Positions 3,374-31,151 of a DNA stretch of 32,000 nucleotides are shown in pieces. Each line of letters begins with the position of its first letter. Positions within the stretch are counted from its first letter, which is position 1. The translations under genes and the position numbers were made by a program. The notes below the pieces were generated by a model that did not search any database, was not told where the DNA came from, and saw only the letters and a program-made list of their open reading frames with translations. This stretch comes from Halorhodospira halophila SL1 (GTDB lineage Bacteria > Pseudomonadota > Gammaproteobacteria > Nitrococcales > Halorhodospiraceae): positions 330,001-362,000 of the forward strand of contig NC_008789.1 of assembly GCF_000015585.1 (NCBI RefSeq), read 5' to 3'.

Positions 3374-4531
3374 TTAGAAGTCCCGGTAAGCCTGGTGGCG
3401 ACTGGCGACGTTGACGAGGTAGTTGCGCGTCTCTTCGTAGGGGAGGTTCTCCGCCAGCGTCTCGTAGACCTCGTCCGGGCTCATGTCGTTGATCACCTCG
3501 GCGGCAGCCGAGACGTTGGTGCCGTCGACAAACGCCCGGGCCACATTGCCGGCACCGGTGTTGTAGGCGGAGATGACGGCGTAAAGCCGGCTTTCGGGAT
3601 CCTCGATGGCGCTCAGGTAACTACTGTCGAGGATGTCGAGGTAGACGGCGCCGGCGCGGATGTTGTTATCCGGATTATAGAGATAGTCCGGAGAGAACAG
3701 GCGCTGCTCGCCGTAGACCCGCTGCGCCACGTCCCTGCCCGCCGACTCAGGTACGATCTGCATCAGCCCGTAGGCAGGGATATGGGAACGGGCCATGGGA
3801 TTGAAACTGCTCTCGCTGTGCATCACGGCGAGCATGAGCGCCGGATCCACGTCGTAGCGCTCCGCCTCCGCCTCCACATCCTCGCGGAACTCCTCGGCCT
3901 TGTCCGAGGCGCGACTTTCGGGCATGGGGACCGAGAACGAAAGGATGTCGCGTCGACCATCGCCCTCCGGTTCCTGGCGCTGCTCCGCCTTGGCTTGGGC
4001 CATCATCTCTTCGACGTCCTCGGCCGAGATCTCGCTGAGCACCCGCTGCTCATCGGAATTGCCGGCTGCGGTGGTCTCGCTTTCGGGGATGTCCAGTCGA
4101 TCCCACGTCCGCTGGGTGACCTCGTCGCCCTCGTAGGCTTCGGCCAAGGTGGTCTGCAACAGCTCATCCAGTCGCTGGGCGGCCGCCTGCACAGCCTCCC
4201 GCCCCTCCCCTGGGACATCCACTACAATCTCGTTCCGGGCGTAGTCGACGACGGTCCGGGAGGCCTGGTCATCGCCGTACTGAACCCACTCGCGGCGATC
4301 ACTGACCCGCGGCTCTTCCCAGCGCTGGGAGAGCTCCTCCTGATAGGCCTCAAGCTCTTCGTGGAAGGTGTCGCGGAAGTCGGCGTAGCGCTCGCGGAAA
4401 TCGGTGGCGAAGTCGTCAAAGGATTCCCGCTGCTGCTCCCGGAATTGCTCCAGGGCATCTCCAGCGTGGACGGCTCCAGGAACAGCTAGCGTCCCGATCA
4501 GGGCCGACAAGACCCAACGGCGCGTATCCAT
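3374..4531 (-). CDS. MltC-like membrane-bound or periplasmic lytic murein transglycosylase (DUF3393-like N-domain plus SLT domain)
   Basis: 385 aa. SLT catalytic region MHSESSFNPMARSHIPAYGLMQIVPESAGRDV...YNTGAGNV. The N-terminal region resembles the MltC N-domain (RVSDRREWVQYGDDQASRTVVDYARNEIVVDVP). It has a signal peptide (AVPGAVHA|GD) without a lipobox, so I leave the symbol empty. Confidence 0.9.
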   Translation of the reverse strand: MDTRRWVLSALIGTLAVPGAVHAGDALEQFREQQRESFDDFATDFRERYADFRDTFHEELEAYQEELSQRWEEPRVSDRREWVQYGDDQASRTVVDYARNEIVVDVPGEGREAVQAAAQRLDELLQTTLAEAYEGDEVTQRTWDRLDIPESETTAAGNSDEQRVLSEISAEDVEEMMAQAKAEQRQEPEGDGRRDILSFSVPMPESRASDKAEEFREDVEAEAERYDVDPALMLAVMHSESSFNPMARSHIPAYGLMQIVPESAGRDVAQRVYGEQRLFSPDYLYNPDNNIRAGAVYLDILDSSYLSAIEDPESRLYAVISAYNTGAGNVARAFVDGTNVSAAAEVINDMSPDEVYETLAENLPYEETRNYLVNVASRHQAYRDF

Positions 4532-4639: not shown

Positions 4640-5410
4640 TCAAAGACGCAGTTGATCGCCGCTGCCCAGCAGCTCGATGGCTACCCGGGCCGCAGCGGCC
4701 TGCTCGCGCAGCTCCTGCTCGATCCGCGCAGCGGCACTGGGCTTGAGATGGGAGACCCATACCTGCACACCGGAGGGGAGCTGGCGCAGTTGGTCGATGA
4801 GCAGCCCCGGGGTGAAATGCCCCACCTGCAGGGCCAGGGACCGCAGGGCATCCGGGAAGGCACACTCGATGATCAGGGCGTCCGGCGGCTCGGCTTCCAG
4901 CAGCCGTTGCCAGAAGGTGGGACACGGCCCCGTATCCCCGGTGAAGACGAAACAGGCGTGGCCATCCTCGATGCGGTACCCCACCGCCGGGACGGCGTGC
5001 TGCGCCGGCAGGGGCGTCACGTGCAGGGCCCCGATCGGCACGGCCTGATCGGGCGCCAGGGGGTGGAGGGTGAGCACCGGCTCCTCCCGGGTCGGGATGG
5101 CGGTGAAGTCCGGCCACAGGACCCCGTTGAACAGGTGCGCGCGCAGGGCGTCGAGCGTCGGCGCCGGCGCGTGGACCCGGATGGGCGGGCTGTCATCGCC
5201 GATGCGGGCGTCGGCCATCAGCCCCAGATAGGCGATGTGATCCAGGTGGGCGTGGGTGAGCAGGACATCGCGGATGCCGCCGAGCTCGGCGGCGGTCAGG
5301 TCGCCGACGCCGCTGCCGGCGTCGACGAGCAACCAGCCGTCCACCAGCAGGGCAGTGGTGCGCAGCCCCTGGCCGATACCGCCACTGGTACCTAGCGCGC
5401 GCAGCTCCAT
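4640..5410 (-). CDS. Class-II-type 3',5'-cyclic-nucleotide phosphodiesterase (metallo-beta-lactamase fold), apparently cytoplasmic
   Basis: 256 aa starting MELRALGTSGGIGQGLRTTALLVDGWLLVDAGSGVGDL, with an HAHLDH metal motif (LLTHAHLDHIAYLG). A GGAGGG SD lies upstream. No signal peptide. Confidence 0.75.
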   Translation of the reverse strand: MELRALGTSGGIGQGLRTTALLVDGWLLVDAGSGVGDLTAAELGGIRDVLLTHAHLDHIAYLGLMADARIGDDSPPIRVHAPAPTLDALRAHLFNGVLWPDFTAIPTREEPVLTLHPLAPDQAVPIGALHVTPLPAQHAVPAVGYRIEDGHACFVFTGDTGPCPTFWQRLLEAEPPDALIIECAFPDALRSLALQVGHFTPGLLIDQLRQLPSGVQVWVSHLKPSAAARIEQELREQAAAARVAIELLGSGDQLRL

Positions 5411-6616: not shown

Positions 6617-8245
6617 GTGGACGGACTGAACCCACCGCCGCTGACTGAGCAGCGCCTGGCGCAGCTGCTGGAGGTCGGTGTCGCCCTCTCGGCGGAGCAG
6701 GACACCGATCGCCTACTCGAACGCATCCTCTCCGGTGCGCGCGAGCTGACGGAGGCGGATGCCGGGACCATCTACCGGGTCCACGAGGGGCAGCTGCACT
6801 TCGACACCGTCCACAACGACACTCTCGGTCTCCACCTGGGCGGCACGTCCGGGGTGCCCATCGACTTCTCGCCCCTCCCCCTCTACCTGGCCGACGACAC
6901 GCCGAACACCCGCAACGTGGCCGCCTACGCGGCGGTCTCCGGCGAAACCGTGCGCATCGACGATGCCTACCACGCCGAGGGGTTCGACTTCTCGGGCACC
7001 CGCGCGGTGGACGCGCGCACCGGATACCGCTCGCAGTCCTTCCTCACTGTCCCGCTGCGCGACCACGAACAGACCATCATCGGTGTCCTGCAACTGATCA
7101 ACGCCGTGCGCGAGGGACAGACGGTCCCCTTCACCGGCCGCGATGCCCGGATTGCCGAGTCATTGGCCTCCCAGGCGGCCATTGCCCTGACCAAACAAGG
7201 CCTGATCGACACCCAACGGCAGCTGTTCGAGTCGTTCACCGAGGTCCTCGCCCGGGCCATCGACCGCAAGAACCCGACCACCGGCCGCCACTGCGAGCGC
7301 GTCCCGCAGCTGACGCTGATGATCGCCGACGCCGCCTGCCGCACCGGCGAGGGGGCGCTGGCCGATTACCGCCTGAGCGCCGAGGAACACGAAGAGCTGC
7401 GCCTGGCCGCCTGGCTCCACGACTGCGGCAAGGTCACCACCCCCGAGGCGGTGGTGAACAAGGCCACCAAGCTGGAACGCCAGACCGATCGCATCGAAGA
7501 GGTCGCGACCCGTGCGGCCGTGGTCCGCCAGGAGGCGGAGGCCGAACGACTGCGCCGCCGGCTGGCCGCCCGCGAGCAGGGCGTGGACCGGGACGCCGAG
7601 CAGGCCGATGCCGACTACCGCGCCCTCGTCCAGCGCCTCGACGACGACCTGGCCTTCCTGCGCAGCGCCAACATCGGCGGCGAGGCCATGGACGACGAGG
7701 CCTGCGAACGGGTCGCCGCCATCGCCCGCACCTACAGCTGGACGGACGCCGCGGGCGAGCGGCGCCCGCTACTCAGCGCCGAAGAGGTGGAGCACCTGCA
7801 GATCCGCCGCGGCACCCTGAGCGCCGCGGAGATGGAGCAGATGCGCGACCACGTGCGGGTCAGCCGCGAGATGCTCGAGCAGCTCACCTACCCGCGCCAC
7901 CTGCAGCGGGTGCCGGAGATCGCCTCGCAGCACCATGAGCGCATGGACGGCGGCGGCTACCCCGACGGCATCACCGGCGGGCAGATGTGCCGGCGGGCCC
8001 GAATGATGGCGCTGGCCGACGTCTTCGAGGCCCTGACCGCCGCCGACCGCCCCTACAAGCCAGGCAAGAAGCTCAGCGAAGCGGTGCGCATCATGGGCTT
8101 CATGACCCAGGACGGCCACTTCGACCCGGAGCTGTTCGACCTCTTCATCCGTGAAGGGGTCTACCTGGACTACGCCCGCCAGTTCATGCACCCGAGCGCC
8201 ATCGACGCGGTGGACGAGACCGCCATCCCCGGCTACCGGCCGTAG
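6617..8245 (+). CDS. GAF domain-containing HD-GYP phosphodiesterase (c-di-GMP or cyclic-dinucleotide hydrolase type)
   Basis: 542 aa with a GTG start. N-terminal GAF-like region (LERILSGARELTEADAGTIYRV...SFLTVPLRDHEQTIIGVLQLIN). HD motif WLHDCGKV and GYP motif HHERMDGGGYPDG. Confidence 0.9.
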   Translation: MDGLNPPPLTEQRLAQLLEVGVALSAEQDTDRLLERILSGARELTEADAGTIYRVHEGQLHFDTVHNDTLGLHLGGTSGVPIDFSPLPLYLADDTPNTRNVAAYAAVSGETVRIDDAYHAEGFDFSGTRAVDARTGYRSQSFLTVPLRDHEQTIIGVLQLINAVREGQTVPFTGRDARIAESLASQAAIALTKQGLIDTQRQLFESFTEVLARAIDRKNPTTGRHCERVPQLTLMIADAACRTGEGALADYRLSAEEHEELRLAAWLHDCGKVTTPEAVVNKATKLERQTDRIEEVATRAAVVRQEAEAERLRRRLAAREQGVDRDAEQADADYRALVQRLDDDLAFLRSANIGGEAMDDEACERVAAIARTYSWTDAAGERRPLLSAEEVEHLQIRRGTLSAAEMEQMRDHVRVSREMLEQLTYPRHLQRVPEIASQHHERMDGGGYPDGITGGQMCRRARMMALADVFEALTAADRPYKPGKKLSEAVRIMGFMTQDGHFDPELFDLFIREGVYLDYARQFMHPSAIDAVDETAIPGYRP

Positions 8246-8247
8246 CC

Positions 8248-10260
8248 GTGCCGACCCCCCTGCGCAACCGCCTCGCTCCCCTGGCCATCGGCCTCCTGCT
8301 CCTCGCCCTGGTCCTCGGCGCCACCCGCAGCGACTGGCCGCCCCTGCGCGACGCCGTACAGACCGCCGAGCACTTCATCTACGACCAGCGCCTGGTCTGG
8401 TCCCAGCGGACCGGCATCGAGCAGCACGACGATGCCGAGATCGTCATCATCGACATCGACGAACGCAGCCTGGGCGCCGTTGGCCGCTGGCCTTGGCCGC
8501 GGGCGACCATGGCCGATCTGCTGGAGCAGCTGTGGGCCGCCGGCACCATCGTCGTCGCCTTCGATATCGTCTTCGCCGAGCCCGAGCGCAATCCGGCGGA
8601 GCGGGTGGCCCGCGGGGTCGACGACCCGGCGCTGCGAGAACGCCTCGGTGAACTCGCTCCGCGATTCGACGGCGACCGGCACCTGGCCGAGCAGCTGGCG
8701 CGCGGCGACGCGGTGCTCGGCTTCTTCCTGCACCGTGACGAGACCGCCACCCATACCGGCACCCTGCCCGAGCCGGCTCGAGGCGCGGAGGAGCTGGGCA
8801 CCGGGACGCCGGTGATCCACCGTTTCCAGGCGTACACCGGCAACCGCCCTGCACTCCAGGAGGCGGCCACCGGCGCCGGCGCCTTCAGCGTCATCCCCGA
8901 CGCCGACGGCGTGGTGCGCCGGGCGCCGCTGCTGCTGGGCCACGGCGATGCCGTCTATCCGGGCCTGGCGCTGGAGACGGCGCGGGTCTATCAGCTGCTC
9001 GACGACTTCCGGGTCGAGACGGTGGCCCTCGGCGCGCACACCGCCGTAGACGCCATCGAGCTCGGCGCCGCCCGGCTGCCCACCGACGCCCGGGGCCAGG
9101 CCCTGATCCCCTACCGCGGCCCCCGGGGCAGCTTCCCCTACATCAGCGCCGTGGACCTACTCCGCGGTGAGACCGACCCCGACGCCCTGGAGGGCGCCAT
9201 CGCCCTGATCGGCACCAGCGCCATGGGCCTCTACGACCTGCGCCCGACCCCGACCGATGCGGCCTTCCCCGGCGTCGAGATCCACGCCAATCTGCTTGCC
9301 GGCATCCTCGCCGACGACCTCCCCCGGAAGCCGGCCTGGGTGGACGGCGCCAACCTGGTCACCACGCTCACCGCAGGCCTGGTTGCCGCCGGGCTGCTGC
9401 CGTTTCTCGGCCCGCTGGCCACGCTGGCCGTAACGGCCGGGCTGCTGGCCCTGCTCGTCGGCGGCAATCTGTGGGCCTGGGCCCAGTGGGATCTGGCCCT
9501 GGGCGCCGCCGGCCCCCTGGCCGCGGTCCTGCTGATCGGCGCCGGGAACCTGACCTGGGGATTCCTGTTCGAGCACCGCCGCCGCCACCAGCTGCGCCAA
9601 CGCTTCGGCGAGTACGTCCCGCCGGAGCTGGTGGAGCGCATGGCCGAGGCGCCCACCGCCTACACCCAGACGGGGGAAACCCGCGAGATCACGGTGCTCT
9701 TCGCCGATATCCGCGGCTTCACCACGCTCTCCGAACGGCTCGACGCGGTGGCCCTGCGCGAGCTGCTCAACCGCTTCTTCACCCCCATGACCCGGGTCAT
9801 CTTCGAGCACGGCGGGACCATCGACAAATACGTGGGGGATCTGATCATGGCCTTCTGGGGGGCGCCCATGGACGACCCGGAACACCGCCGCCACGCCGTC
9901 GCCGCCGCGCTGGCCATGCAGCGCGAGGCGGAACGCCTGCGCGAGGAGCTGGCCCGCGAGGGGCTGCCGGCGATCGAGATCGGCATCGGCCTGAACTCCG
10001 GACCCGCCGCCGTCGGCGACATGGGTTCCGCCTATCGCCGCGCCTACACCGCCCTGGGCGACGCCGTGAACCTGGCCTCCCGGGTGGAGGGGCAGACCAA
10101 GGCCTACGGCGTCGGGCTCCTGGTCACCGAGCACACCCGTGCCGGCCTGGAGACGGTTTACGGGTTCCGCGAGATCGATCGGATCCAGGTCAAGGGCCGC
10201 AGCCAACCGGTCACGCTCTACGAGCCGGTCGAGGCCACGCAGTCACCTGCAGAAACCTGA
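8248..10260 (+). CDS. CHASE2 sensor domain-containing class III adenylate cyclase
   Basis: 670 aa. The GTG start lies 2 nt after the upstream TAG. Order: N-terminal TM, a periplasmic CHASE2-like region (IVIIDIDERSLGAVGRWPWPR), a cluster of TM helices, then the cyclase domain (VLFADIRGFTTLSE, KYVGDLIMAFWGAP, GDAVNLASRVEG). Substrate-specifying positions are Lys (codon 9826..9828) and Thr (10048..10050), the K/T pair of class IIIb ATP-specific cyclases. Confidence 0.9.
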   Translation: MPTPLRNRLAPLAIGLLLLALVLGATRSDWPPLRDAVQTAEHFIYDQRLVWSQRTGIEQHDDAEIVIIDIDERSLGAVGRWPWPRATMADLLEQLWAAGTIVVAFDIVFAEPERNPAERVARGVDDPALRERLGELAPRFDGDRHLAEQLARGDAVLGFFLHRDETATHTGTLPEPARGAEELGTGTPVIHRFQAYTGNRPALQEAATGAGAFSVIPDADGVVRRAPLLLGHGDAVYPGLALETARVYQLLDDFRVETVALGAHTAVDAIELGAARLPTDARGQALIPYRGPRGSFPYISAVDLLRGETDPDALEGAIALIGTSAMGLYDLRPTPTDAAFPGVEIHANLLAGILADDLPRKPAWVDGANLVTTLTAGLVAAGLLPFLGPLATLAVTAGLLALLVGGNLWAWAQWDLALGAAGPLAAVLLIGAGNLTWGFLFEHRRRHQLRQRFGEYVPPELVERMAEAPTAYTQTGETREITVLFADIRGFTTLSERLDAVALRELLNRFFTPMTRVIFEHGGTIDKYVGDLIMAFWGAPMDDPEHRRHAVAAALAMQREAERLREELAREGLPAIEIGIGLNSGPAAVGDMGSAYRRAYTALGDAVNLASRVEGQTKAYGVGLLVTEHTRAGLETVYGFREIDRIQVKGRSQPVTLYEPVEATQSPAET

Positions 10261-10345: not shown

Positions 10346-11707
10346 ATGGGACGGCTGGGTATGATCAAACGCACCGGGCTCTGCGCCCTCTACCTTGCGC
10401 TCGGCCCCGGTCTGGCAACCGCGGAGCCCCCGTCCCAGCCTACAAAGGTTGAGATCAATCCGGACCGGGTCGCCTTGGAGATCCGGCGGGAACTCGATGC
10501 CGACCGCCCCGGGCAGGCCCTCACCCTGGCCCGAACCCACAAGGAACTCGCCGGATACCCCATCTACGACTTCGAGGCCGGGCGCGCCTACCTGCGCAGC
10601 GGGGATATCGACGAGGCGGTGGTGCACTTCGACCGGGCCGTCATGGTCGCCCCGGATGTGCCGCGCTACCGTCTGGAGTACGCCCGCGCGCTGTTCGCGG
10701 CCGAGGATCACGAGGCCTCTCAGCGTCAGTTTCAGCGCGTGCTGGATACCGATGTACCGGAGCCGGTGGCCCAGAACATCCGCCGCTTCCTGGAGGTCAT
10801 TGACGCCCGGCTCGCCTCTCGCCGCCCGGAGACCCGACTGGAGGTCGCCGCCGCCGCTGGCTACGACTCCAACCCGCTCTCGGCGGCGGACGACGAGTTC
10901 CTGCTCTTCGGCGTCTTCCCGCAGACCTTCGAGCGCGAGTCCGATACCTTCCTCGACACCCGCGCGCAGCTGGAACACCGCCGCCCCCGCACCCGGAGCA
11001 GCAGCTACCACTACCGTGGCGAGGTGGAGCACCGCCGCCACAGCGACGTCAGCGCCGCCGACCAGACCCAAGCGCGCCTGCGCGGCGGGTTGTCGTTCGA
11101 GGGGGCACAGGGCCGCTCCTACCGCCTGCCGGTGGAGGTGCAACACACCCGCCTGGACGGCGAGACCTTCCGCACCCGCGTCGCCTTCCTGCCCCAGGCG
11201 GTGCTCCCCGGGGCCCCGGACCGCCAACTGCGCCTGCAGGGCCAGCTGGCCTACGCCGATTACGACAACGACGACCGCGACGCCGTCACCCTCGGCGCCT
11301 CCGCCACCTCGCTGCACGTCCTCAACCCGGATAGCGGGCTCTTGCTCTACACCGGCCTGGCGGCCTCCTATGAGGACGCCGACGCCGACGCGTTCACCAC
11401 CACCCGCGCCGGCGCATTCGTAGGCGCCCAACGGGACCTGTTCCAGGACGCCACCGCCAGCGTCACGCTCACCGCCTCCCACGAGCGGGCCCGCGAGGCG
11501 CGCGCGATCCTCGGCCTCTTCCCGGAGGAGGACAACACCGCCGAGCGGGCCACGACGTTCGAGCTCCGCGGGGCCCTGGCCCACCCGCTGTGGGACTCCG
11601 GATTCACCGGCTTCGCCGAGGGCGCCCTGCGCGAGAAGCGCTCCAACATCGACCTGTTCGAGTTCACCCAGCGTGAGATCTTCGCCGGAGTGCGCTATGA
11701 CTACTGA
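10346..11707 (+). CDS. TPR plus beta-barrel outer membrane protein (Slam/DUF560-like architecture; family not verified)
   Basis: 453 aa with a signal peptide (LALGPGLATA|EP). TPR-like helices (GRAYLRSGDIDEAVVHFDRAVMVAPDVPRYRLEYARALF). The roughly 300-aa C-terminal part shows alternating strand patterns, a GYDSNP motif and an aromatic C-terminus (GVRYDY). Alternative ATG at 10361. Confidence 0.8.
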   Translation: MGRLGMIKRTGLCALYLALGPGLATAEPPSQPTKVEINPDRVALEIRRELDADRPGQALTLARTHKELAGYPIYDFEAGRAYLRSGDIDEAVVHFDRAVMVAPDVPRYRLEYARALFAAEDHEASQRQFQRVLDTDVPEPVAQNIRRFLEVIDARLASRRPETRLEVAAAAGYDSNPLSAADDEFLLFGVFPQTFERESDTFLDTRAQLEHRRPRTRSSSYHYRGEVEHRRHSDVSAADQTQARLRGGLSFEGAQGRSYRLPVEVQHTRLDGETFRTRVAFLPQAVLPGAPDRQLRLQGQLAYADYDNDDRDAVTLGASATSLHVLNPDSGLLLYTGLAASYEDADADAFTTTRAGAFVGAQRDLFQDATASVTLTASHERAREARAILGLFPEEDNTAERATTFELRGALAHPLWDSGFTGFAEGALREKRSNIDLFEFTQREIFAGVRYDY

Positions 11708-13325
11708 GCCCGGCCGCGCGGCCGCCCCGCTGGTTCTGGCCGCTGCCGTTCTTGGCGGCACCGCCGGCTACATCCCCCTGGTCGCAGCGGAGGAGCGCAT
11801 CGGCATCGTCCTCGCCAACCGCGGCGACCCGGTGCTGATCCGCGACGGCGAAGAACAGCCCGTGGGGCGCCGCGACGAGATCCGCGCCGGCGACCGGCTC
11901 AAGACGGACGATCGCTCGCGGCTGCAGATGCGGCTCAACGACGGCCAGACCCTGAGCCTGACCGAGAACACCGAGCTGCACATCGAGGCCTACCACTTCG
12001 ACGAAGACAGCGGTGCCGGGGAGAGCCGCAAGAGCCTGATCGAGGGCGGCCTGCGCGCCATCACCGGGCAGATCAGTGGCGAGGACGATTACACCATCGA
12101 GACCGAGGTGGCCACCATCGGCATCCGCGGGACCATCTTCGAACTCGCCCACAGCGACGGCATCACCGCCGGCGGCACGCCCCGCGGTCGCGGCTATGCC
12201 GAGAACCGCGGTGATAACCGGCAACGGATCAACACCGGCGACGACGCCCGCACCGACTACTACCGGGTGGTGGACGCCGACCTGCCGCCCGAGGCGCTGC
12301 CCGAGCGGCCGGCGGAGCTGGCGGCGCTCGATGAGGCCGCGCCTGATACGCCGGAGGACTCGGAAGCGACGGACGAGAACGGTTCCCAGCCATCCGAAGA
12401 CGACGCCGAGGAGACCTCAACCGACGAGCAGCAGGCCTCGGAAGAGACGGAAGGCGACATGGACACGCCGGAGGACAGCGATCTCCCGGCGACCGTCGAT
12501 GCACCGGTGGAGCCGGCAACCGATGACGGGATCGCGGTGGCGCAGCAAGAAACCGCAGCCAAGGAGGCCGAAGACGACACCGACGACATCGATGACACCG
12601 TAGAGCTGGACCACGACCTACTCGTCGACATCAACCCCGACGCCGCGGGCGTCGTCCCCGAGCCCGGTGAATCCTTCGTCTACATCCGCGGCGACGCCCG
12701 GGGGGCCGACGATCCGCTCTTCTTCCGCACTCCGACACTCGAGGAGCGGGAGGAGATGGCCCGTGAAGGGGACTGGGATTTCCACGCGGACGACGAGCAG
12801 GAGGAGTTCGGTCCCGCGACCGGGGAGTGGGGATACTGGTTTGAAACCGATAGCGACGAGATCGGGGGGTTCTGGATACAGGGGGAGAGCTACGTCGATG
12901 AGGTCGATCTCGAGCCGGAGGAAGAACTCCCCTTTTATGGCGGGTGGGTGGAGGCGGGTTGGTCTCGCGGCCTCCTTGGCGACCAAGGTGCTGCTTTTGA
13001 GGATGCGCGGATCACCATTGCTGAGGACCAAGCCGTCACACTTGAGCATTTCGAGATCCGGCAGTACCGACCCGACCACGAGAATCACCTGATCTGGCGC
13101 ACCGACAGAAAGGACACAAACCTAGGAGCGCTCGCAGAAGGCATCAACGTCTCCGGCGACATCCTGATCCTTGGGGAGTCGGCCGATGGCTTCTCCGGCG
13201 ACCTCGCCGCCATGCTCTCGCAGATGGACGAGACCCTGGAGCTTTTGGGTGAGTTCGACTTCCAGGCGGATGACAACGAAGACTGGGCGGTGGACGGCGT
13301 CTTTTTCCTGGAGCTGGACGACTGA
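11697..13325 (+). CDS. Secreted FecR-domain protein with an acidic linker and an aromatic/Gly-rich C-terminal domain
   Basis: I choose ATG 11697, which overlaps the OMP stop by 11 nt; the ORF-track start at 11673 is also possible. Signal peptide without a lipobox (LAAAVLGGTAGYIPLVAA|EE). FecR-like segment (IVLANRGDPVLIRDG...IRAGDRLKTDDRSRLQMRLNDGQTLSLTENTELHI). A D/E/T/P-rich linker spans about 12240..12640. The C-terminal region contains GEWGYWFE, PFYGGWVEAGW and LLGEFDFQADDNEDWAVDGVFFLELDD. Confidence 0.8.
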   Translation: MTTEPGRAAAPLVLAAAVLGGTAGYIPLVAAEERIGIVLANRGDPVLIRDGEEQPVGRRDEIRAGDRLKTDDRSRLQMRLNDGQTLSLTENTELHIEAYHFDEDSGAGESRKSLIEGGLRAITGQISGEDDYTIETEVATIGIRGTIFELAHSDGITAGGTPRGRGYAENRGDNRQRINTGDDARTDYYRVVDADLPPEALPERPAELAALDEAAPDTPEDSEATDENGSQPSEDDAEETSTDEQQASEETEGDMDTPEDSDLPATVDAPVEPATDDGIAVAQQETAAKEAEDDTDDIDDTVELDHDLLVDINPDAAGVVPEPGESFVYIRGDARGADDPLFFRTPTLEEREEMAREGDWDFHADDEQEEFGPATGEWGYWFETDSDEIGGFWIQGESYVDEVDLEPEEELPFYGGWVEAGWSRGLLGDQGAAFEDARITIAEDQAVTLEHFEIRQYRPDHENHLIWRTDRKDTNLGALAEGINVSGDILILGESADGFSGDLAAMLSQMDETLELLGEFDFQADDNEDWAVDGVFFLELDD

Positions 13326-13383: not shown

Positions 13384-14136
13384 ATGACCTACTGCCTCGC
13401 CATCGCTGTGGATGAAGGCCTGGTCTTCGCCTCCGACAGCCGCACCCACGCCGGGGTCGATCAGGTCAGCACCTACAGCAAGATGTTCGCCTACGCCCGC
13501 CCCGGCGAGCGGAGTCTGGTGGTGCTCTCCGCCGGCAACCTGGCCACCACCCAGGCGGTGGTCCGGCGGCTCAACCGGGACTGGCAGACCGGCGCCGAGC
13601 CCTCGCTGGCGAACACGCCCACCCTCGAGGACGCCGCCGAGTACCTGGGTGAGGTCAGCGTCGAGCTGCAGCGCCGCTCGGTGGAGCAGTCCGGACAGCA
13701 GAACGGCCTGGCGGTGGAGGCCACCTTCCTCATCGGCGGTCAGATCCAGGGGCAGGCGCCGGGGATCTACATGGTCTATCCCCAGGGGAACTTCATCACC
13801 GCCTCGCCACTGCACCCGTTCCTGCAGATCGGCGAGACCAAGTACGGCAAGCCGATCCTCGATCGCATCGTCTCCGAGCAGCTGCCACTGGAGCGCGCCG
13901 CCACCTGCGCGCTGATCTCCATCGACTCGACCATGCGCAGCAACCTCTCCGTGGGCCCGCCGGTGGAGCTCCTCACCTACCGGCGCGACAGCCTCGACCC
14001 CGGCCACTACCGGGCCTTCCAGCCGGACGACCCCTACTTCGCCGACCTACGCGATGCCTGGCGGGACGGCCTGCAGCAGCTCTTCGATCAGCTGGCCGCC
14101 CCGCCGCTGGACCCGGCCGCCCCCACCACCTCCTGA
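13384..14136 (+). CDS. Anbu-type proteasome-like peptidase (Ntn hydrolase, T1 family)
   Basis: 250 aa starting MTYCLAIAVDEGLVFASDSRT. Thr immediately follows Met with no propeptide, as in Anbu. It also has GNLATTQ and LIGGQ...PGIYMVYPQGNF. Confidence 0.85.
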   Translation: MTYCLAIAVDEGLVFASDSRTHAGVDQVSTYSKMFAYARPGERSLVVLSAGNLATTQAVVRRLNRDWQTGAEPSLANTPTLEDAAEYLGEVSVELQRRSVEQSGQQNGLAVEATFLIGGQIQGQAPGIYMVYPQGNFITASPLHPFLQIGETKYGKPILDRIVSEQLPLERAATCALISIDSTMRSNLSVGPPVELLTYRRDSLDPGHYRAFQPDDPYFADLRDAWRDGLQQLFDQLAAPPLDPAAPTTS

Positions 14137-15125
14137 ATGAAGCGCAGCTTCTCGGCCACCGGCTCGGTGACCTTGAACGGATAGGGATCGCGCTGCCCGA
14201 GGCTGCGCGACAGGGCGTTGAGCGCCTCGCTGAGCTGGTGCCAGCGCTCGAGCAGCTGCTCGATGTCCTCCCCCGCCTGCGGCATCCCGGTGAGCTGGTA
14301 GACGCCGGCGGTCTCCAGGGCGTCGGTGATGTGCAGGTAGTGCGCCCAGCTCTCGGCCCAGTCCTCCCAGGGGTGCGAGGCCGCATAGGCGCTGATGTGG
14401 CGCACGGCCCAGTCCGGCCCCTGGGGGCCAAACTGGTAGTAGCGCTGCAGCGCCTGCTCGTAGGGCTCGCGCTCGTCGCCGAAGAGCGCGCGGAAACGCT
14501 CCTGCCACGGCGAGCCCTCGATCAGCCGCATCCAGTAGTAGTGGCCGATCTCGTGGCGCATGTGCCCGAGCAGGGTGCGGTAGGCCTCGCCCAAGGCGAT
14601 GCGGGTGCGCTCCCGGTGGATCTCGTCGGCCTCGGCGACGTTGATGGTGATCCGCCCCCCGGCGTGACCGGTGATGATCTGCTGCGGCCCCTCGGGGGTA
14701 TCGGCATCCGCCAGGAACTGGAAGACCAGGCCGCGCTGCGGGTCCTGCCAGCGGTCGGCCAGGGGCAGGCCGAGTCGCAGCAGATCGGTGATGAGGTAGC
14801 GCTTGGCCGCCTCCAGCCGCCCCCAGTAGATGCGGTTGAGCTCGTTATCCAGGTCGGGGATGGTGTCGGTCAGGCGGCAGGCCAGACACAGGGCGTCGCC
14901 GCTTTCCGCCGGCACCAGCCAGTCGCAGCTGGCGGCCACCACATTGGCGCAGTTGCGGTAGCGCTGCCCGCCGCCCCCGGGGGCCCGCCAGAGCCCGTCG
15001 GCGCCGGCGTCCAGGGCCACCACCGCGCGGCGGGCCGGATCGAAGCCCAGCGCCCGGCCGCAGCTCAGGCAACGGGTGTTGCCGAAGTGCAGCCGGTTGC
15101 CGCAGGCGCAGTGGAAGAGGCGCAT
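14088..15125 (-). CDS. Zinc-ribbon plus HExxH putative zinc metallopeptidase
   Basis: 345 aa. N-terminal Cys clusters (FHCACGNRLHFGNTRCLSCG and CDWLV..CLAC) and an HEIGHYYW metalloprotease motif. It starts 3 nt after the alpha-E gene stop. Its 3' end overlaps the Anbu 3' end. Confidence 0.8.
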   Translation of the reverse strand: MRLFHCACGNRLHFGNTRCLSCGRALGFDPARRAVVALDAGADGLWRAPGGGGQRYRNCANVVAASCDWLVPAESGDALCLACRLTDTIPDLDNELNRIYWGRLEAAKRYLITDLLRLGLPLADRWQDPQRGLVFQFLADADTPEGPQQIITGHAGGRITINVAEADEIHRERTRIALGEAYRTLLGHMRHEIGHYYWMRLIEGSPWQERFRALFGDEREPYEQALQRYYQFGPQGPDWAVRHISAYAASHPWEDWAESWAHYLHITDALETAGVYQLTGMPQAGEDIEQLLERWHQLSEALNALSRSLGQRDPYPFKVTEPVAEKLRFIQEVVGAAGSSGGAAS

Positions 15126-15128
15126 GGC

Positions 15129-16060
15129 TCAGCCTTCCGAGAAGTACGTCTCCCCCAGACTGGCATGGACCTGACTGAGGTCAACCTGCAGCGCATCCAG
15201 CCGCCGGTGCAGCGCCCCGGCATCCAGCGGCGCCTCCACCGGCGCGGTGGCCCGCTCCTCGGCGGCGGCGAGCAGACGGCACGGCGACTCGGGGTGGGGG
15301 AGTTCCCCCAGGGCCCGCTCCATGCGCTGGGTGCAGAAGCGCACCGAGCGCGGGAAGCGGTCATCGCGCAGCAGGAAGTCCACCACCCCGGGCCCCTGGA
15401 TCCCCGGGCCGCGCTGCTGGCGGAACTGGCTGTAGCCGCCCAGGTAGCGCAGCATGTTCATCCACACGGCGTCGTCCCAGGTGGGTGGGTGGTCGTCTTC
15501 GTCCCGGGGCAGCGTCGCCGCCCGCACGTCGATGGTGCGGGTGGTCATGTCGGCGCGCTCCAGGTGGCGGCCGAGCATCAGGAACTGGTAGGTCGGCCCG
15601 CGGGAGAGGGTCCCCTCGATGACCCCGCTGATGCCCTGGGCGTACTCGATGACCCCGCGCAGGTACTCGAAGCGGTGGGTCCGATCGACCGCCGTCTCGG
15701 CGCCGCGGTGGGTGTGGAAGTAGAGCTGGTTGATCCGCTCGCGCAGCTCGTCGGGGAGCAGATCGCGCACCGTGCGGGCGTTCTCCCGCGCCCGCACCAC
15801 CGCCGCGTGGATCGAGCTCGGGTGCTGCGAGGCGGGAATCAGCTCAAGCATGGCGGCGCGTTCCGGGGTACGGTTCGGGTCGCACTGCGCCGCGGCCTCC
15901 GGCCCGCCGAGGACCTCCACCAGCGCCCGCCAGTCGATGCGCACCGCGTGGGGCTGATCCAGCGCCAGGTGCGTACCGGTGCTGATCAGCCGCGCGGTAT
16001 TCTCGGCCCGCTCCAGGTAGCGGGCCATCCAATAGACGTGCTCAGCCAGGCGCGAAAGCA

Positions 16061-16061
<1 letters not shown>
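15129..16061 (-). CDS. Alpha-E domain protein
   Basis: 310 aa with the characteristic N-terminus MLSRLAEHVYWMARYLERAENTARL and a later HLERADMTTR. Its ATG shares one base with the upstream TGA (TGATG junction at 16061). Confidence 0.9.
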
Positions 16062-17527
<1,466 letters not shown>

Positions 17528-28210: not shown

Positions 28211-29248
28211 ATGGACATTACCAAGCTGCTCAGCTTCGCCGTCGAACAGGGCGCCTCGGATCTGCACCTCTCGGCCGGGCAGCCGCCGATCATCCGGGTG
28301 GACGGCGACATCCGCCGCGTGGACGCCCCGGCGTTCAGCCACAAGGACGTCCAGCGCCGCGTCTACGACATCATGAACGACGGCCAGCGCCGCGAGTTCG
28401 AGGCGCGGATGGAGACCGACTTCTCCTTCGCCGCCCGCGGCATCGGGCGCTTCCGCGTCAACGCCTTCCAGCAGGACCGCGGCATGGGGGCGGTTTTCCG
28501 GGCCATCCCCGACGAGATCCCCACCCTGCAGGGCCTGAGTGCGCCGCGGATCTTCCGCGACCTCTGCCAGCTGCCCCGGGGGCTGATCCTGGTCACCGGG
28601 CCCACCGGCTCCGGCAAGTCGACCACCCTGGCGGCGATGATCAACGAGAAGAACCGCAGCGACTACGGACATATCCTCACCATCGAGGATCCCATCGAGT
28701 TCGTCCACGAGCCGCAGCGCTGCCTGATCAACCAGCGCGAGGTCCACCGCGACACCCAGAGCTTCGACGCCGCCCTGCGCTCCGCCCTGCGCGAGGACCC
28801 GGACGTGATCCTCGTCGGCGAGCTGCGCGATCTGGAGACCATCCGCCTGGCCCTGACCGCCGCCGAGACCGGCCACCTGGTCTTCGGCACGCTGCACACC
28901 TCCTCGGCCCCGAAGACCATCGACCGCATCATCGACGTCTTCCCCGCCGCCGAGAAGGCCATGGTCCGCTCCATGCTCTCGGAATCGCTCCAGGCGGTGA
29001 TCGCCCAGACCCTGCTCAAGCGCGCCAACGGCGGCCGCGTCGCCGCCCACGAGATCATGCTCGGCACCTCGGCCATCCGGAACCTCATCCGCGAGGACAA
29101 GGTGGCGCAGATGTACTCGACGATGCAGACGGCGCAGTCCCAGGGGATGCAGACCCTCGACCACGCCCTGCAGCAGCTGGTGCAGCAGGGCGTGGTGTCA
29201 ATGGAGGAGGCGGGGCGGAGGGGTGGGCGGTCTCAGGCATACCAATAG
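28211..29248 (+). CDS. pilT: Type IV pilus retraction ATPase PilT
   Basis: 345 aa, near-collinear with P. aeruginosa PilT as I recall it (MDIT.LL.F....GASDLHLSAG.PP.IRVDGD.RR, GPTGSGKSTTLAAM, ILVGE.RDLETIRLALTAAETGHLVFGTLHT, AIRNLIREDKVAQMYS). Confidence 0.96.
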   Translation: MDITKLLSFAVEQGASDLHLSAGQPPIIRVDGDIRRVDAPAFSHKDVQRRVYDIMNDGQRREFEARMETDFSFAARGIGRFRVNAFQQDRGMGAVFRAIPDEIPTLQGLSAPRIFRDLCQLPRGLILVTGPTGSGKSTTLAAMINEKNRSDYGHILTIEDPIEFVHEPQRCLINQREVHRDTQSFDAALRSALREDPDVILVGELRDLETIRLALTAAETGHLVFGTLHTSSAPKTIDRIIDVFPAAEKAMVRSMLSESLQAVIAQTLLKRANGGRVAAHEIMLGTSAIRNLIREDKVAQMYSTMQTAQSQGMQTLDHALQQLVQQGVVSMEEAGRRGGRSQAYQ

Positions 29249-29295
29249 ATCTCTCACCCTCTCCTTAAAAGCTGATCTTGCTAACGCCTTTTTAC

Positions 29296-30111
29296 TTAGA
29301 AAACCGCATATCCCCAATTGCCACCGCTCGCGGGGTCATTTTCAAACACCCCACACCAATGCCCGTTTTCAGTCGGCTCACCCGGCTCTTCATCACATCC
29401 GCCATATTGATGAATATGAGACGGTTCGGCTACCTCCCCCTCAATATAGATACACCCCCCAAAATCTGGCGCACCCCCAGAGAAATATTCCTTATCCGGA
29501 TTATTCCCCTCAGCTTTGGACTGGATAAACACGTCACCTTCAAATGACACTTTACCTGTAATGCTAGCGCCACTCGCTAGACATGCCCCCCCACGAACCA
29601 CGGCATTACCACCACCTTGTGCTTTTTCGCCCTCAGGGATTAAAACGTTCTCGTAATCTTTTTTATCCCACCCATCTACAGCGTCCCAGTCATCCTCCCT
29701 TTCGGCATATTCCCTATCCAACTCACTCCCACCGGGGTAACAAATCGCGTGCCTAGCATGAGCATTGCCCCATGATTGGCTTTCCCCAACCCACCCGACA
29801 TACAAATCCATTTGTTCACAGGGATTGCCACTTATGAAACCAGGATTTTTTTTGGAGTAGATCTGCCCGCCAGGGAAGTCAACATCCCCCCTCTTCATCC
29901 GAGCGCTCTCAGCCGCATAAAAGGCCTGCGCGTCGACTAGGCTGTCAACAACCACGGATGCGCGGCTTTCTACCATTCTTCCTATGCCAGCTAACAAAAG
30001 TCCAATAGCAAGAATCGTGACGACTCCCATAACCAACATCGATCCAGCCTGAGTTTTTTTAAAGCGGACGGCCACCTCCGCTCTTCCTAACGTATGTGAG
30101 TAATACTCCAT
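29296..30111 (-). CDS. PilX_N-like pilus assembly protein with a Cys-rich C-terminal extension
   Basis: I place the start at ATG 30111 (MEYYSHTL...), which has a GGGAGGG SD. The hydrophobic N-terminus followed by QAFYAAESA matches the PilX/MshP-type N-domain pattern (AGSMLVMGVVTILAIGLLLAGIGRMVESRASVV..DAQAFYAAESA). It uses AT-rich codons (tta, aga, aaa, att). Confidence 0.62.
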   Translation of the reverse strand: MEYYSHTLGRAEVAVRFKKTQAGSMLVMGVVTILAIGLLLAGIGRMVESRASVVVDSLVDAQAFYAAESARMKRGDVDFPGGQIYSKKNPGFISGNPCEQMDLYVGWVGESQSWGNAHARHAICYPGGSELDREYAEREDDWDAVDGWDKKDYENVLIPEGEKAQGGGNAVVRGGACLASGASITGKVSFEGDVFIQSKAEGNNPDKEYFSGGAPDFGGCIYIEGEVAEPSHIHQYGGCDEEPGEPTENGHWCGVFENDPASGGNWGYAVF

Positions 30112-30124
30112 CCGCCCTCCCAAG

Positions 30125-30613
30125 CTATGGGCTCAAAGCTGCTCGATGAGTTACTCCGAAGTCATAACTTACCACATCATCGCCTTGGCTCACGGTCAGC
30201 GTGATGACATAAAAACCGTCCACGCCCGTATCTTCCGGGTTCTCACAGGGCACTTCGCTCCCATTTACGATCAGCCCGCGAACCGGCACTCGCAGGCTCG
30301 GATCCTCCTCCCTTTCAAGCGTTATCTCATCCTCTTTAGCTTTTATATCGCTGCACGAGAACGAGGTACCTGGACGTGAACGAATCTCTTGCCTCAGGCG
30401 CTGAACCGCGTACACCACATCCGACCGCTTGTCTAGCTCTTCCTCAAGCGCGAAAGAGATGTTAAAGAGTGCCGAAATCGGTTGCGCTGCCATGACCGCC
30501 ACCATACCGGCCAGCACCAGAACGAGGATCAGCTCCCAGAGGGTGAGTCCTGCCTGTTTATTGACCCCTTTCGGGTTGCGCTTGTGGGTGGTACTCACCG
30601 CCCCCTCACTCAT
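30125..30613 (-). CDS. Prepilin-type N-terminal cleavage/methylation domain protein (minor pseudopilin)
   Basis: I choose ATG 30613, which overlaps the upstream stop within ATGAGTGA. Class III signal: ...NKQAG|LTLWELILVLVLAGMVAVMAA with Glu at +5. The leader is 22 aa, or 17 aa from the GTG at 30598. Confidence 0.7.
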   Translation of the reverse strand: MSEGAVSTTHKRNPKGVNKQAGLTLWELILVLVLAGMVAVMAAQPISALFNISFALEEELDKRSDVVYAVQRLRQEIRSRPGTSFSCSDIKAKEDEITLEREEDPSLRVPVRGLIVNGSEVPCENPEDTGVDGFYVITLTVSQGDDVVSYDFGVTHRAALSP

Positions 30614-31151
30614 CAGCGTCGAAACCCACATAAAGCGGATCAAGGCCACCGACCCCCGGCCCCTCATAGCCGATTCTGATGACTAGCACCGCCGCCGCGT
30701 CATCTTCTTCAACACGAGAAACTCGGACGAGCGAGTCCGTTTCCTCATCAGCAGCGCCACAAAAACGGTTCCAGAGATCCGCCGCAATCCCAATTCCGGG
30801 GCTCTCAGCGGTTAGGTCTTCGCCATTTTCCGTATTGTCTTTAATCCGATGCGGGTCGAACACCGCATTTTCGTCTTCGTCATCGGTCCGCGATGCCGCG
30901 ATAATCAACTCAGCACAGCTCTCCGCATTTCTGGCCGCTTTCTCCACCCGCTCGGCATCGGGCAGCGTGGCAAAGAACGGATAGAAGGACGCCAGTGCCG
31001 CCATGGCGATCCCCAGCACCACGATGGTCACAATCATCTCGATGAGCGTGAGGCCACGCTGGGCCGATCGAGTATTGCGGCGGAACCCGCTCCCGTGCCT
31101 CCCGCCAGGACGTGCCGTATTGAGGTGGAGCCGCAGGCCGCTAGTCTTCAT
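30606..31151 (-). CDS. Prepilin-type N-terminal cleavage/methylation domain protein (minor pseudopilin)
   Basis: I choose ATG 31151, which overlaps the upstream TAG by 11 nt; the GTG at 31172 is an alternative. Class III signal: ...RSAQRG|LTLIEMIVTIVVLGIAMAALA with Glu at +5. The leader is 33 aa and basic. Confidence 0.7.
   Translation of the reverse strand: MKTSGLRLHLNTARPGGRHGSGFRRNTRSAQRGLTLIEMIVTIVVLGIAMAALASFYPFFATLPDAERVEKAARNAESCAELIIAASRTDDEDENAVFDPHRIKDNTENGEDLTAESPGIGIAADLWNRFCGAADEETDSLVRVSRVEEDDAAAVLVIRIGYEGPGVGGLDPLYVGFDADE

Follow-up and report, generated by a model that had tools for sequence, protein, structure and literature searches.

The window analysed here is a 32,000-nucleotide stretch of the Halorhodospira halophila SL1 genome (NC_008789.1, positions 330,001 to 362,000), and our subject is a gene pair within it that encodes an outer-membrane protein (OMP) and, directly downstream, a protein with a FecR domain. 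The pair follows two genes on the same strand, one for a GAF-HD-GYP phosphodiesterase and one for a CHASE2 sensor fused to a nucleotide cyclase. The two genes are probably a cognate type 11 secretion system (T11SS, Slam/DUF560) pair of transporter and cargo set in a cyclic-nucleotide operon. The features of the locus are as follows.

6617..8245, plus strand: gene of a GAF-HD-GYP phosphodiesterase, the first of the co-directional cluster (Pfam HD_5 127.5 bits, GAF 60.4 bits; HHERMDGGGYPDG motif).
8248..10260, plus strand: gene of a CHASE2 sensor fused to a class III nucleotide cyclase (Pfam CHASE2 209.2 bits, Guanylate_cyc 81.9 bits).
10346..11707 (likelier start ATG 10361), plus strand: gene of an OMP of the T11SS/Slam superfamily (homology and AlphaFold2 (AF2) model).
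10460..10818, plus strand: predicted periplasmic TPR-like helical domain of the OMP, residues 39-157 (seven AF2 helices with a predicted local distance difference test score (pLDDT) of ~90; Pfam TPR).
10829..11704, plus strand: predicted 14-strand beta-barrel of the OMP, residues 162-453, starting at GYDSN and ending in GVRYDY (AF2 strands by DSSP).
11686..11707, plus strand: translational-coupling junction (GGAG 11686-11689, ATG 11697, OMP stop TGA 11705-11707).
11697..13325, plus strand: gene of the FecR-domain protein, a putative T11SS cargo of 542 aa, predicted to be Sec-exported and non-lipidated (Pfam, alignment of orthologues).
11793..12191, plus strand: FecR-like beta domain, residues 33-165 (Pfam FecR; 92-96% identity among Halorhodospira orthologues).
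12297..12701, plus strand: acidic low-complexity linker, residues 201-335 (composition; AF2 pLDDT <35).
12702..13322, plus strand: C-terminal domain, residues 336-542, the positional equivalent of a TbpB/hemophilin-type barrel and possibly homologous to it.

The genes of the cluster are closely spaced. Two nucleotides separate the stop of the HD-GYP gene from the start of the cyclase gene and ~85-100 nt lie between the cyclase and OMP genes, while the OMP and FecR genes overlap by 11 nt (11697-11707). At this junction the DNA reads ...GGA GTG CGC TAT GAC TAC TGA, and the ATG at 11697-11699, 7 nt behind the GGAG, opens the MTTEPG... frame. An alternative in-frame GTG lies upstream at 11673, but every orthologue of the FecR protein begins MTTEPHRP, so the ATG at 11697 is taken as the start; overlaps of about 11 nt are also seen at two homologous loci, L005 and L006 (L with a number denotes a locus, P with a number a homologous protein). 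The longest open reading frame (ORF) of the OMP starts at 10346, but the ATG at 10361 is the more likely start because the NCBI protein has 448 aa and the homologues begin MIKRTG. The OMP and the FecR protein each show 100% identity to an NCBI entry. An earlier note on this DNA, made from its letters alone, had described the 11-nt overlap and the position of both genes behind the cyclase on the same strand; direct reading of the sequence bears out both and places the GAF-HD-GYP gene in front of the cyclase.

The OMP has a signal-like, hydrophobic N-terminus as read by eye (MIKRTGLCALYLALGPGLATA/EP, with ATA/EP). Its AF2 model, built on a 12-sequence alignment with a mean pLDDT of 82.9, consists of seven helices (residues 39-157) and, behind them, 14 strands (162-452), and Pfam TPR families match residues 76-144 (TPR_19 at 31.6 bits, TPR_16 and TPR_2). 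The GYDSN motif at the onset of the barrel is invariant in the family (G172, Y173, D174, N176). Sequence, Pfam and model agree in this with the earlier note, which had read a signal peptide, TPR helices and a strand-rich region ending in GVRYDY and had expected a 14-strand barrel with a periplasmic TPR domain. Some homologues (P0002, P0004 at L005:2587-4164, and P0030) carry in addition a LysM domain, which binds peptidoglycan and is placed after the signal peptide and before the TPR region.

By definition, T11SS OMPs are members of DUF560 that combine a TPR domain with a barrel of 14 strands, and the 16-strand PgaA group is excluded (PMC8406197). Several direct tests weigh against placing the window OMP among them. 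It gave no match to PF04575 (DUF560/SlipAM; gathering cutoff 22 bits) at E ≤ 1 in the Pfam scan and no DUF560 match in NCBIfam, its score for TPR_Slam was below threshold (22.9 bits against a cutoff of 35.2), and a Foldseek search of the model against PDB was led by BcsC (E 8e-15, TM-scores 0.46/0.39). PelBC and PgaA-type entries also matched, while the best alignments of the barrel itself were to two 14-strand barrels, OmpG (TM-score 0.62 on the target) and CymA. Because PDB holds no solved Slam barrel, this last search can only return generic barrels of 14-16 strands, with BcsC first, and does not tell Slam from the others. Sequence searches of PDB found only TPR proteins with the window OMP, and TPR proteins plus marginal matches in the barrel region (FhuE, OmpX) with the OMP family profile A7.

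The homologues, in contrast, do match the DUF560 family. Relatives found among 5.8e9 sequences ranged from P0005 (2.9e-16) to P0008 (3.4e-4), and P0008 matches PF04575 at 31.3 bits over nearly the whole length. The genomic homologues at L046 (52.2 bits), L017 (43.5 bits), L084 (38.7 bits) and L053 (33.6 bits) match most or nearly all of the PF04575 model, and in phmmer searches from the window OMP those of L046, L053 and L084 aligned over most of the barrel and that of L017 over part of it. An OMP profile search of 1.84e9 representatives retrieved 15,809 proteins at E ≤ 1e-3 and 1,775 at E ≤ 1e-30; the best 150 matches are nearly all of ~440 aa and aligned over their full length. PF04575 is the top non-TPR family in this set, matched at E ≤ 1e-3 by 66 of 104 OMP-family representatives. 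With homologues that match PF04575 and a fold that combines 14 strands with TPR helices, the window OMP is placed in the DUF560 superfamily as a divergent member, by transitive homology and structure and in spite of the failed direct Pfam test. The Slam/DUF560 assignment proposed earlier thus holds through the homologues and the fold and not through a PF04575 match of the window protein itself, and the family does carry a DUF560 signal instead of pointing to some other barrel family.

The FecR-domain protein starts with a signal-like N-terminus that, as read from the sequence, has no Cys. Pfam FecR (PF04773) matches residues 66-156 at 46.9 bits against a cutoff of 24, and the linker contains 34% D+E, 36% P/T/S/A and 1% aromatic residues, as had been anticipated with a non-lipoprotein signal peptide, a FecR domain and a D/E/T/P linker of ~130 aa. 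When the window protein and its orthologues are compared, the FecR domain is 92-96% identical, the linker 34-60% and most of the C-terminal domain 37-52%, and it is therefore the FecR domain, unlike the C-terminal domain, that varies least within the cargo. In classical T11SS cargo the pattern is reversed, judging by the variability of TbpB.

The FecR domain also shows a likeness to the retention modules of bacterial adhesins. The NCBIfam model retention_LapA (NF033682) matches the window domain at 21.4 bits (E 2.3e-4), and significant but sub-threshold matches were found in 7 of 8 other partners tested, the best being L004 (partner gene L004:2648-5398; 31.2 bits, E 2.1e-7). Membership of the LapA-type module was rejected, all matches lying at 21-31 bits against a curated cutoff of 50 bits, while the similarity itself is significant. 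A profile of 61 FecR domains (A8) gave a single significant match in PDB, 5ix9 (27.8 bits, E 1.5e-5), which is the N-terminal domain of the Marinomonas adhesin MpIBP. This structure was the template for modelling the LapA retention module, which stays on the periplasmic side, where it closes the outer-membrane pore like a plug and holds the adhesin by a flexible segment (bioRxiv 10.1101/198937); our literature search found no paper tying FecR domains to retention modules. The FecR domains of the window family further resemble the Leptospira proteins LipL45, a lipoprotein, and Lsa33, a named surface adhesin. A FecR-type anti-sigma factor was ruled out, as the FecR domain starts at about residue 35, directly after the signal-like N-terminus; the gene context also speaks against it, the neighbours being GAF-HD-GYP, CHASE2 cyclase, proteasome-like, Peptidase_Mx, Alpha-E and circularly permuted (CP) ATP-grasp genes.

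The pair is widely conserved. We collected 86 loci, namely 80 from a scan of one genome per species, five metagenomic ones and the window, and searched their ORFs with the domains of the window. A FecR-domain gene lies directly downstream of the OMP gene on the same strand at 78 of the 86; among the eight exceptions, three are cut by a contig edge and two have a FecR gene ~3 kb further on. Most loci come from gamma- and betaproteobacteria (Halorhodospira, Bermanella, Thalassolituus, Bacterioplanoides, Pseudohongiella, Aidingimonas, Burkholderiales and Rhodocyclales), and a few from metagenome-assembled genomes assigned outside these classes. The partners share a signal-like N-terminus, the FecR domain, an acidic or Pro/Thr-rich low-complexity linker and a C-terminal domain. 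At L001 (9442-12102), the linker of the partner includes tandem TDPG repeats (DPGTDPGTDPGT...), which recall the Pro-Thr-Asp repeats of predicted Psychrobacter T11SS cargo (PMC12282271).

The C-terminal domain of the family is of the kind found in T11SS cargo. Starting from the C-terminal 205 residues of a single partner, iteration of a hidden Markov model (HMM) converged on a ~170-residue domain, which the first HMM found at the extreme C-terminus of 57 of the 78 partners (56 complete partners) and an extended HMM in 65 of 69 complete partners. Searched against PDB, the profile A4 built from 53 of these sequences matched LbpB (4.4e-7 and 8e-7) and TbpB (4.6e-6 and 1.8e-4) as well as GNA2132/NHBA and hemophilin, with the remaining matches (one more LbpB entry and enolase) at E > 0.3. 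The single domain from L004 found no match in PDB, where only the 53-sequence profile gave matches. In Pfam, six individual members matched TbpB_B_D and three HphA_C. Giant partners of 1,389-2,346 aa (L026:1888-8928, L030:11295-18317, L022:11388-15557) combine one N-terminal FecR domain with 4-7 tandem TbpB-like domains, similar to the surface proteins with multiple TbpBBD domains described as T11SS cargo in Sphingomonas and Psychrobacter (PMC12282271). TbpB, LbpB and the hemophilins are named T11SS cargo (PMC12282271), and known cargo, soluble or lipidated, joins an N-terminal module that varies to an 8-strand barrel at the C-terminus, often with disordered regions as well (PMC8406197, PMC12282271).

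Whether the cargo of the window itself ends in such a barrel is a harder question. Its C-terminal domain of 207 residues is 13% aromatic and 28% D+E, and the last 62 aa, 67-79% conserved, are the best-conserved part after the FecR domain. Against a barrel stand four results. The domain matched nothing in Pfam at E ≤ 10, PF01298 included; hhalign, run locally and globally against the family profile, gave a non-significant E of 0.05 with a probability of 1%; HMMER against the family HMM reached 4-7 bits; and the AF2 model of the FecR protein, from a 9-sequence alignment, had a pLDDT of 36 and was unusable. On the other side, position and length of the domain are as expected for such a barrel, the weak HMMER matches are co-linear with the family domain, with a WGxW motif at the start and an LLGxFDF...AVDGVFFLE segment at the end, and none of 200 shuffled versions of the domain reached 7.4 bits. 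The close orthologue at L006 scores 9.5 bits over its C-terminal half (E 7e-4 among 13 sequences), and L008, from a second Halorhodospira lineage, has a clear copy of the domain (hhalign 85%, E 6e-6). A metagenome scan for intermediate relatives of the FecR protein returned two close orthologues and no bridging sequences. On this comparison of sequences we consider it fairly likely that the window domain is a cargo barrel that has degenerated and become acidified in a halophile. The resemblance to a TbpB-type barrel, which the earlier note had seen by eye, is thus confirmed for the family and unconfirmed for the window protein. The proposed pairing of OMP and cargo fares similarly: the 78 of 86 loci and 65 of 69 C-terminal domains make it well supported for the family, and it is probable for the window locus, where the proteins fail the PF04575 and PF01298 scans.

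The second line of evidence concerns cyclic-nucleotide signalling. In the cyclase protein, CHASE2 (PF05226) covers residues 29-377 and Guanylate_cyc (PF00211) residues 477-656, both above their cutoffs, and the catalytic domain shows the motifs FADIRGFT, DKYVGD and YTALGDAVNLASR. The motifs DKYVGD and YTALGD give a Lys/Thr substrate-specifying pair, which we take to mark adenylate specificity in class III cyclases, and this suggests that the enzyme is an adenylate cyclase. At 13 of the 86 loci a CHASE2 cyclase gene is found no more than 3 kb from the OMP gene, and at least four arrangements occur (cyclase-OMP-FecR in one direction; OMP-FecR convergent with the cyclase; a divergent order; and OMP-cyclase). 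By a rough estimate, which assumes that such cyclases are rare and applies to loci that are phylogenetically related, chance would put one there at well under 1 of the 86. At 18 loci a protein of ~150 aa that consists of a cyclic nucleotide (cNMP)-binding domain only is encoded divergently next to the pair (e.g., L001:7371-7832 and L004:639-1097, both on the minus strand); these are Bermanella-like and related genomes with no adjacent cyclase. The window, L006 and L013 each have a GAF-HD-GYP gene with the cluster. What weighs against a general signalling role is that at ~65% of the loci both a CHASE2 cyclase and a cNMP-binding gene are missing from the vicinity, and the link is therefore accessory, not universal. 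At L013 (9911-16484) and L044 (6435-11204) the OMP gene adjoins a CHASE2 cyclase gene and no FecR gene was detected nearby; L013 also has the GAF-HD-GYP gene and L044 a cNMP-binding/rhodanese protein. The large ORFs beside the OMP gene at these two loci were considered as FecR-less partners and rejected as high-GC artefacts with no domain.

Related gene associations have been reported. A four-gene cluster of CHASE2 cyclase, phosphodiesterase (PDE), FecR and TPR proteins occurs in Campylobacterota (PMC9239204). In Burkholderia and Pseudomonas aeruginosa, LysM-FecR proteins predicted to be extracytoplasmic are encoded beside CHASE2 histidine kinases, CHASE2 being a widespread sensor domain whose ligands are stated to be unknown (PMC5192318). 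The LysM domain is thus on the OMP in some homologues of the window family (P0002, P0004, P0030) and on the FecR protein elsewhere. In Sinorhizobium meliloti, the targets of the cyclic AMP (cAMP) regulator Clr include the FecR-domain protein SMc02177 and the TPR protein SMb20495, both dependent on CHASE2 cyclases, and SMc02177 and two other Clr targets are dispensable for signal perception (PMC5498481); NsrA, an outer-membrane beta-barrel, mediates signal perception upstream of these cyclases (PMC13001267). Tlr0485 is a GAF-HD-GYP protein whose hydrolysis of cyclic di-GMP (c-di-GMP) needs cAMP (bioRxiv 10.1101/2021.11.05.467447). The trio of cyclase, OMP and FecR genes is accordingly conserved outside this genome, as the earlier note had asked, with CHASE2 linkage at 12 loci besides the window and the similar cluster in Campylobacterota. 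None of the three outcomes by which the note would have been refuted was observed. Its view that the combination had not been characterised is right for the T11SS interpretation and wrong for the CHASE2-FecR association and the four-gene cluster, which are already in print. Its picture of an input arm for cAMP signalling was inference only, and the example of SMc02177, a Clr target not needed for perception, does not favour it.

The explanation that we consider probable for the locus runs as follows. The OMP would be exported by Sec and inserted as a 14-strand outer-membrane barrel with a periplasmic TPR domain. Its cargo, likewise Sec-exported and non-lipidated, would consist of the FecR-like domain, a disordered acidic linker of ~135 aa and a C-terminal domain of ~200 aa; the OMP would recognise this last domain and move it across the outer membrane. 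cAMP made by the CHASE2 cyclase might be read by the GAF domain of the HD-GYP protein and so control the hydrolysis of c-di-GMP. As the pair is translationally coupled and co-directional with the cyclase and GAF-HD-GYP genes, it most likely belongs to the same cyclic-nucleotide pathway, and a signalling role for it is plausible; information could flow either towards cAMP synthesis or away from it.

One possible extension is that the FecR-like domain serves as a periplasmic retention module, so that the cargo is tethered across the outer membrane and is not an exported effector. The N-terminal domain would then fold in the periplasm, and the Slam-like barrel would pass only the C-terminal TbpB-type barrel, or several of them in the giant partners. 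The acidic linker would be threaded through the 14-strand pore, and the periplasmic end might touch CHASE2 or the TPR domain of the OMP. Events at the surface, such as binding, pulling or loss of the outer domain, could in this way be relayed to cAMP synthesis and, through the GAF-HD-GYP protein, to c-di-GMP. That the N-terminal domain may stay in the periplasm is suggested by its likeness to LapA/MpIBP, by its conservation next to a variable linker and outer domain and by the LysM domains on OMP homologues; the LysM-FecR fusions beside CHASE2 kinases (PMC5192318) are a further hint. We regard the tether as tentative and rather doubtful. If it were true, a CHASE2 sensor would for the first time have a protein as its input, and type 11 cargo would have a new mode of anchoring.

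A real but subordinate possibility is that the pair is an output of the pathway, that is, a T11SS OMP and a surface or secreted protein (e.g., an adhesin) under cAMP control that does not feed into the CHASE2 cyclase. The S. meliloti proteins SMc02177 and SMb20495 behave in this way, as Clr targets that depend on CHASE2 cyclases and are unneeded for perception (PMC5498481), and the small neighbour at 18 loci is a reader of cNMP instead of a cyclase. The resemblance of the FecR domains to LipL45 and Lsa33 and the adhesin-like look of the giant multi-barrel members point in the same direction. The gene order of the window, however, with the pair behind cyclase and PDE genes on the same strand at short gaps, is a layout typical of sensor accessories; the operon already has a plausible cAMP reader and output in the GAF-HD-GYP protein, and CHASE2 sensors pair with periplasmic FecR proteins in Burkholderia and P. 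aeruginosa (PMC5192318).

It is unlikely that no secretion takes place at all and that the FecR protein is a periplasmic accessory of CHASE2 while the TPR-barrel acts, like NsrA, as a receptor or porin that relays an outside signal. Such an arrangement would fit the LysM-FecR proteins beside CHASE2 histidine kinases with their peptidoglycan-binding LysM (PMC5192318), the position of the NsrA barrel upstream of CHASE2 cyclases (PMC13001267), the periplasmic LysM domain of some OMP homologues, the presence at L013 and L044 of an OMP gene next to a CHASE2 cyclase gene and no FecR gene, and the unproven state of the C-terminal barrel in the window. It does not fit the barrel marking T11SS cargo that ends 65 of the 69 complete partners, nor the place of the OMP family within DUF560, nor the strict order of OMP and partner genes with translational coupling, which matches known T11SS loci; and a purely periplasmic role leaves both the long disordered linkers and the 4-7-fold repetition of the barrel unexplained. 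That the OMP is a BcsC/PgaA/PelB-type exopolysaccharide export porin with the FecR gene as an unrelated neighbour, as might be read from the top Foldseek rank of BcsC (E 8e-15), the PelBC and PgaA-type entries and the inclusion of some PgaA homologues under PF04575 (PMC8406197), is highly improbable and was rejected on strand count and gene context, given 14 strands in the AF2 model and not 16 (a distinction drawn in PMC8406197), low TM-scores to BcsC (0.46/0.39), no polysaccharide synthesis genes among the neighbours examined and the FecR partner standing next at 78 of 86 loci.

The surroundings of the cluster contain a few other features. A second cAMP-related gene precedes the operon by ~1.2 kb and is read from the other strand (4640-5410, minus strand); it encodes a metallo-beta-lactamase-fold protein that matches PDEase_II, the class II cAMP phosphodiesterase family of Pfam, at 46 bits. 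A soluble lytic transglycosylase (SLT) gene is found near the cluster at 3374-4531 (minus strand), and an SLT gene is also directly upstream of the OMP gene in L013 (7854-9806, minus strand), possibly by coincidence. Directly downstream of the pair, the region 13384-17527 begins with a proteasome-subunit-like gene (plus strand), which is followed on the minus strand by Peptidase_Mx/zinc-ribbon, Alpha-E and circularly permuted ATP-grasp genes; we saw no link between these and the pair. At 29001-31000 the G+C content falls to 0.55-0.56 from ~0.68 elsewhere, with a strongly negative GC skew, and an ORF at 29296-30123 (minus strand) had no Pfam match at E ≤ 1e-5. Scans of the whole window for tRNA and Rfam families gave no match.

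Type 11 secretion has so far been understood almost only from host-associated systems that scavenge metal or haem. Most DUF560 proteins have no predicted cargo (PMC12282271). The window locus belongs to a large and mainly environmental branch (the 1,775 representatives at E ≤ 1e-30). The near-invariant architecture of the protein encoded downstream of the OMP, a FecR-like domain, a linker and a TbpB-type barrel, defines a testable new class of cargo, and the recurrent link between CHASE2 and a secretion pair gives a way to approach the question of what this domain senses or controls. The N-terminal domain of the cargo is related to a periplasmic pore-plugging module, and the operon of the window suggests a relay from cAMP to c-di-GMP via the GAF-HD-GYP protein.

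Among the closest known systems is FecA-FecR-FecI, in which a periplasmic FecR protein (PF04773) is also tied to an outer-membrane barrel and a signalling step at the cytoplasmic membrane. The FecR protein of the window differs in having neither an N-terminal anti-sigma domain nor a transmembrane helix; its neighbours examined include no extracytoplasmic function (ECF) sigma factor or TonB-dependent transducer, and the output would be a nucleotide cyclase. The LapA/MpIBP adhesins share the plan of an N-terminal beta domain, a flexible linker and surface domains, retention being hypothetical for the window protein. LapA-type adhesins leave by a type 1 secretion system (T1SS) with the LapE pore and are controlled by c-di-GMP through LapG/LapD, and the window operon encodes a c-di-GMP enzyme as well. 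Export in the window would, in contrast, run via Sec and the T11SS barrel and not a T1SS, and no LapG/LapD genes or RTX repeats were seen for this system.

The CHASE2-FecR modules are similar in gene content. The Burkholderia BiofilmReg operon and P. aeruginosa PAO1 combine an extracytoplasmic FecR protein with a CHASE2 signaller (PMC5192318), the S. meliloti CHASE2 cyclases CyaD1/D2/K go together with the FecR-domain protein SMc02177 (PMC5498481), and the Campylobacterota cluster has, by its published description, the same four gene types (PMC9239204). Unlike the protein of the window, the Burkholderia FecR partner carries LysM and lacks an OMP partner. In these earlier reports the TPR protein was not called a DUF560/T11SS barrel, and no TbpB-type barrel was assigned to the FecR protein.

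With the T11SS/Slam systems themselves (Neisseria Slam1/2; Xenorhabdus NilB and HrpB) the pair shares a Sec-exported OMP made of TPR and a 14-strand barrel and an adjacent gene for the putative cargo. At the family level the partner also shares with TbpB, LbpB, fHbp, hemophilin and HphA a signal peptide, a variable N-terminal module, disorder and a C-terminal barrel, and non-lipidated cargo, as predicted for the window, is known. The window pair differs in an OMP too divergent to score on PF04575 and in a cargo whose N-terminal module is FecR-like; our search of the T11SS/Slam literature found no FecR-domain cargo, FecR appearing only as a neighbouring iron regulator. It further differs in that the most conserved part of the cargo is the N-terminal domain and not the C-terminal barrel, and in that its neighbours are cyclic-nucleotide signalling genes in place of a TonB-dependent receptor or a metal/haem context. 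The gene association was thus already in print without the T11SS interpretation, and what the present comparison adds is a new and widespread class of putative FecR-domain T11SS cargo together with its signalling context.

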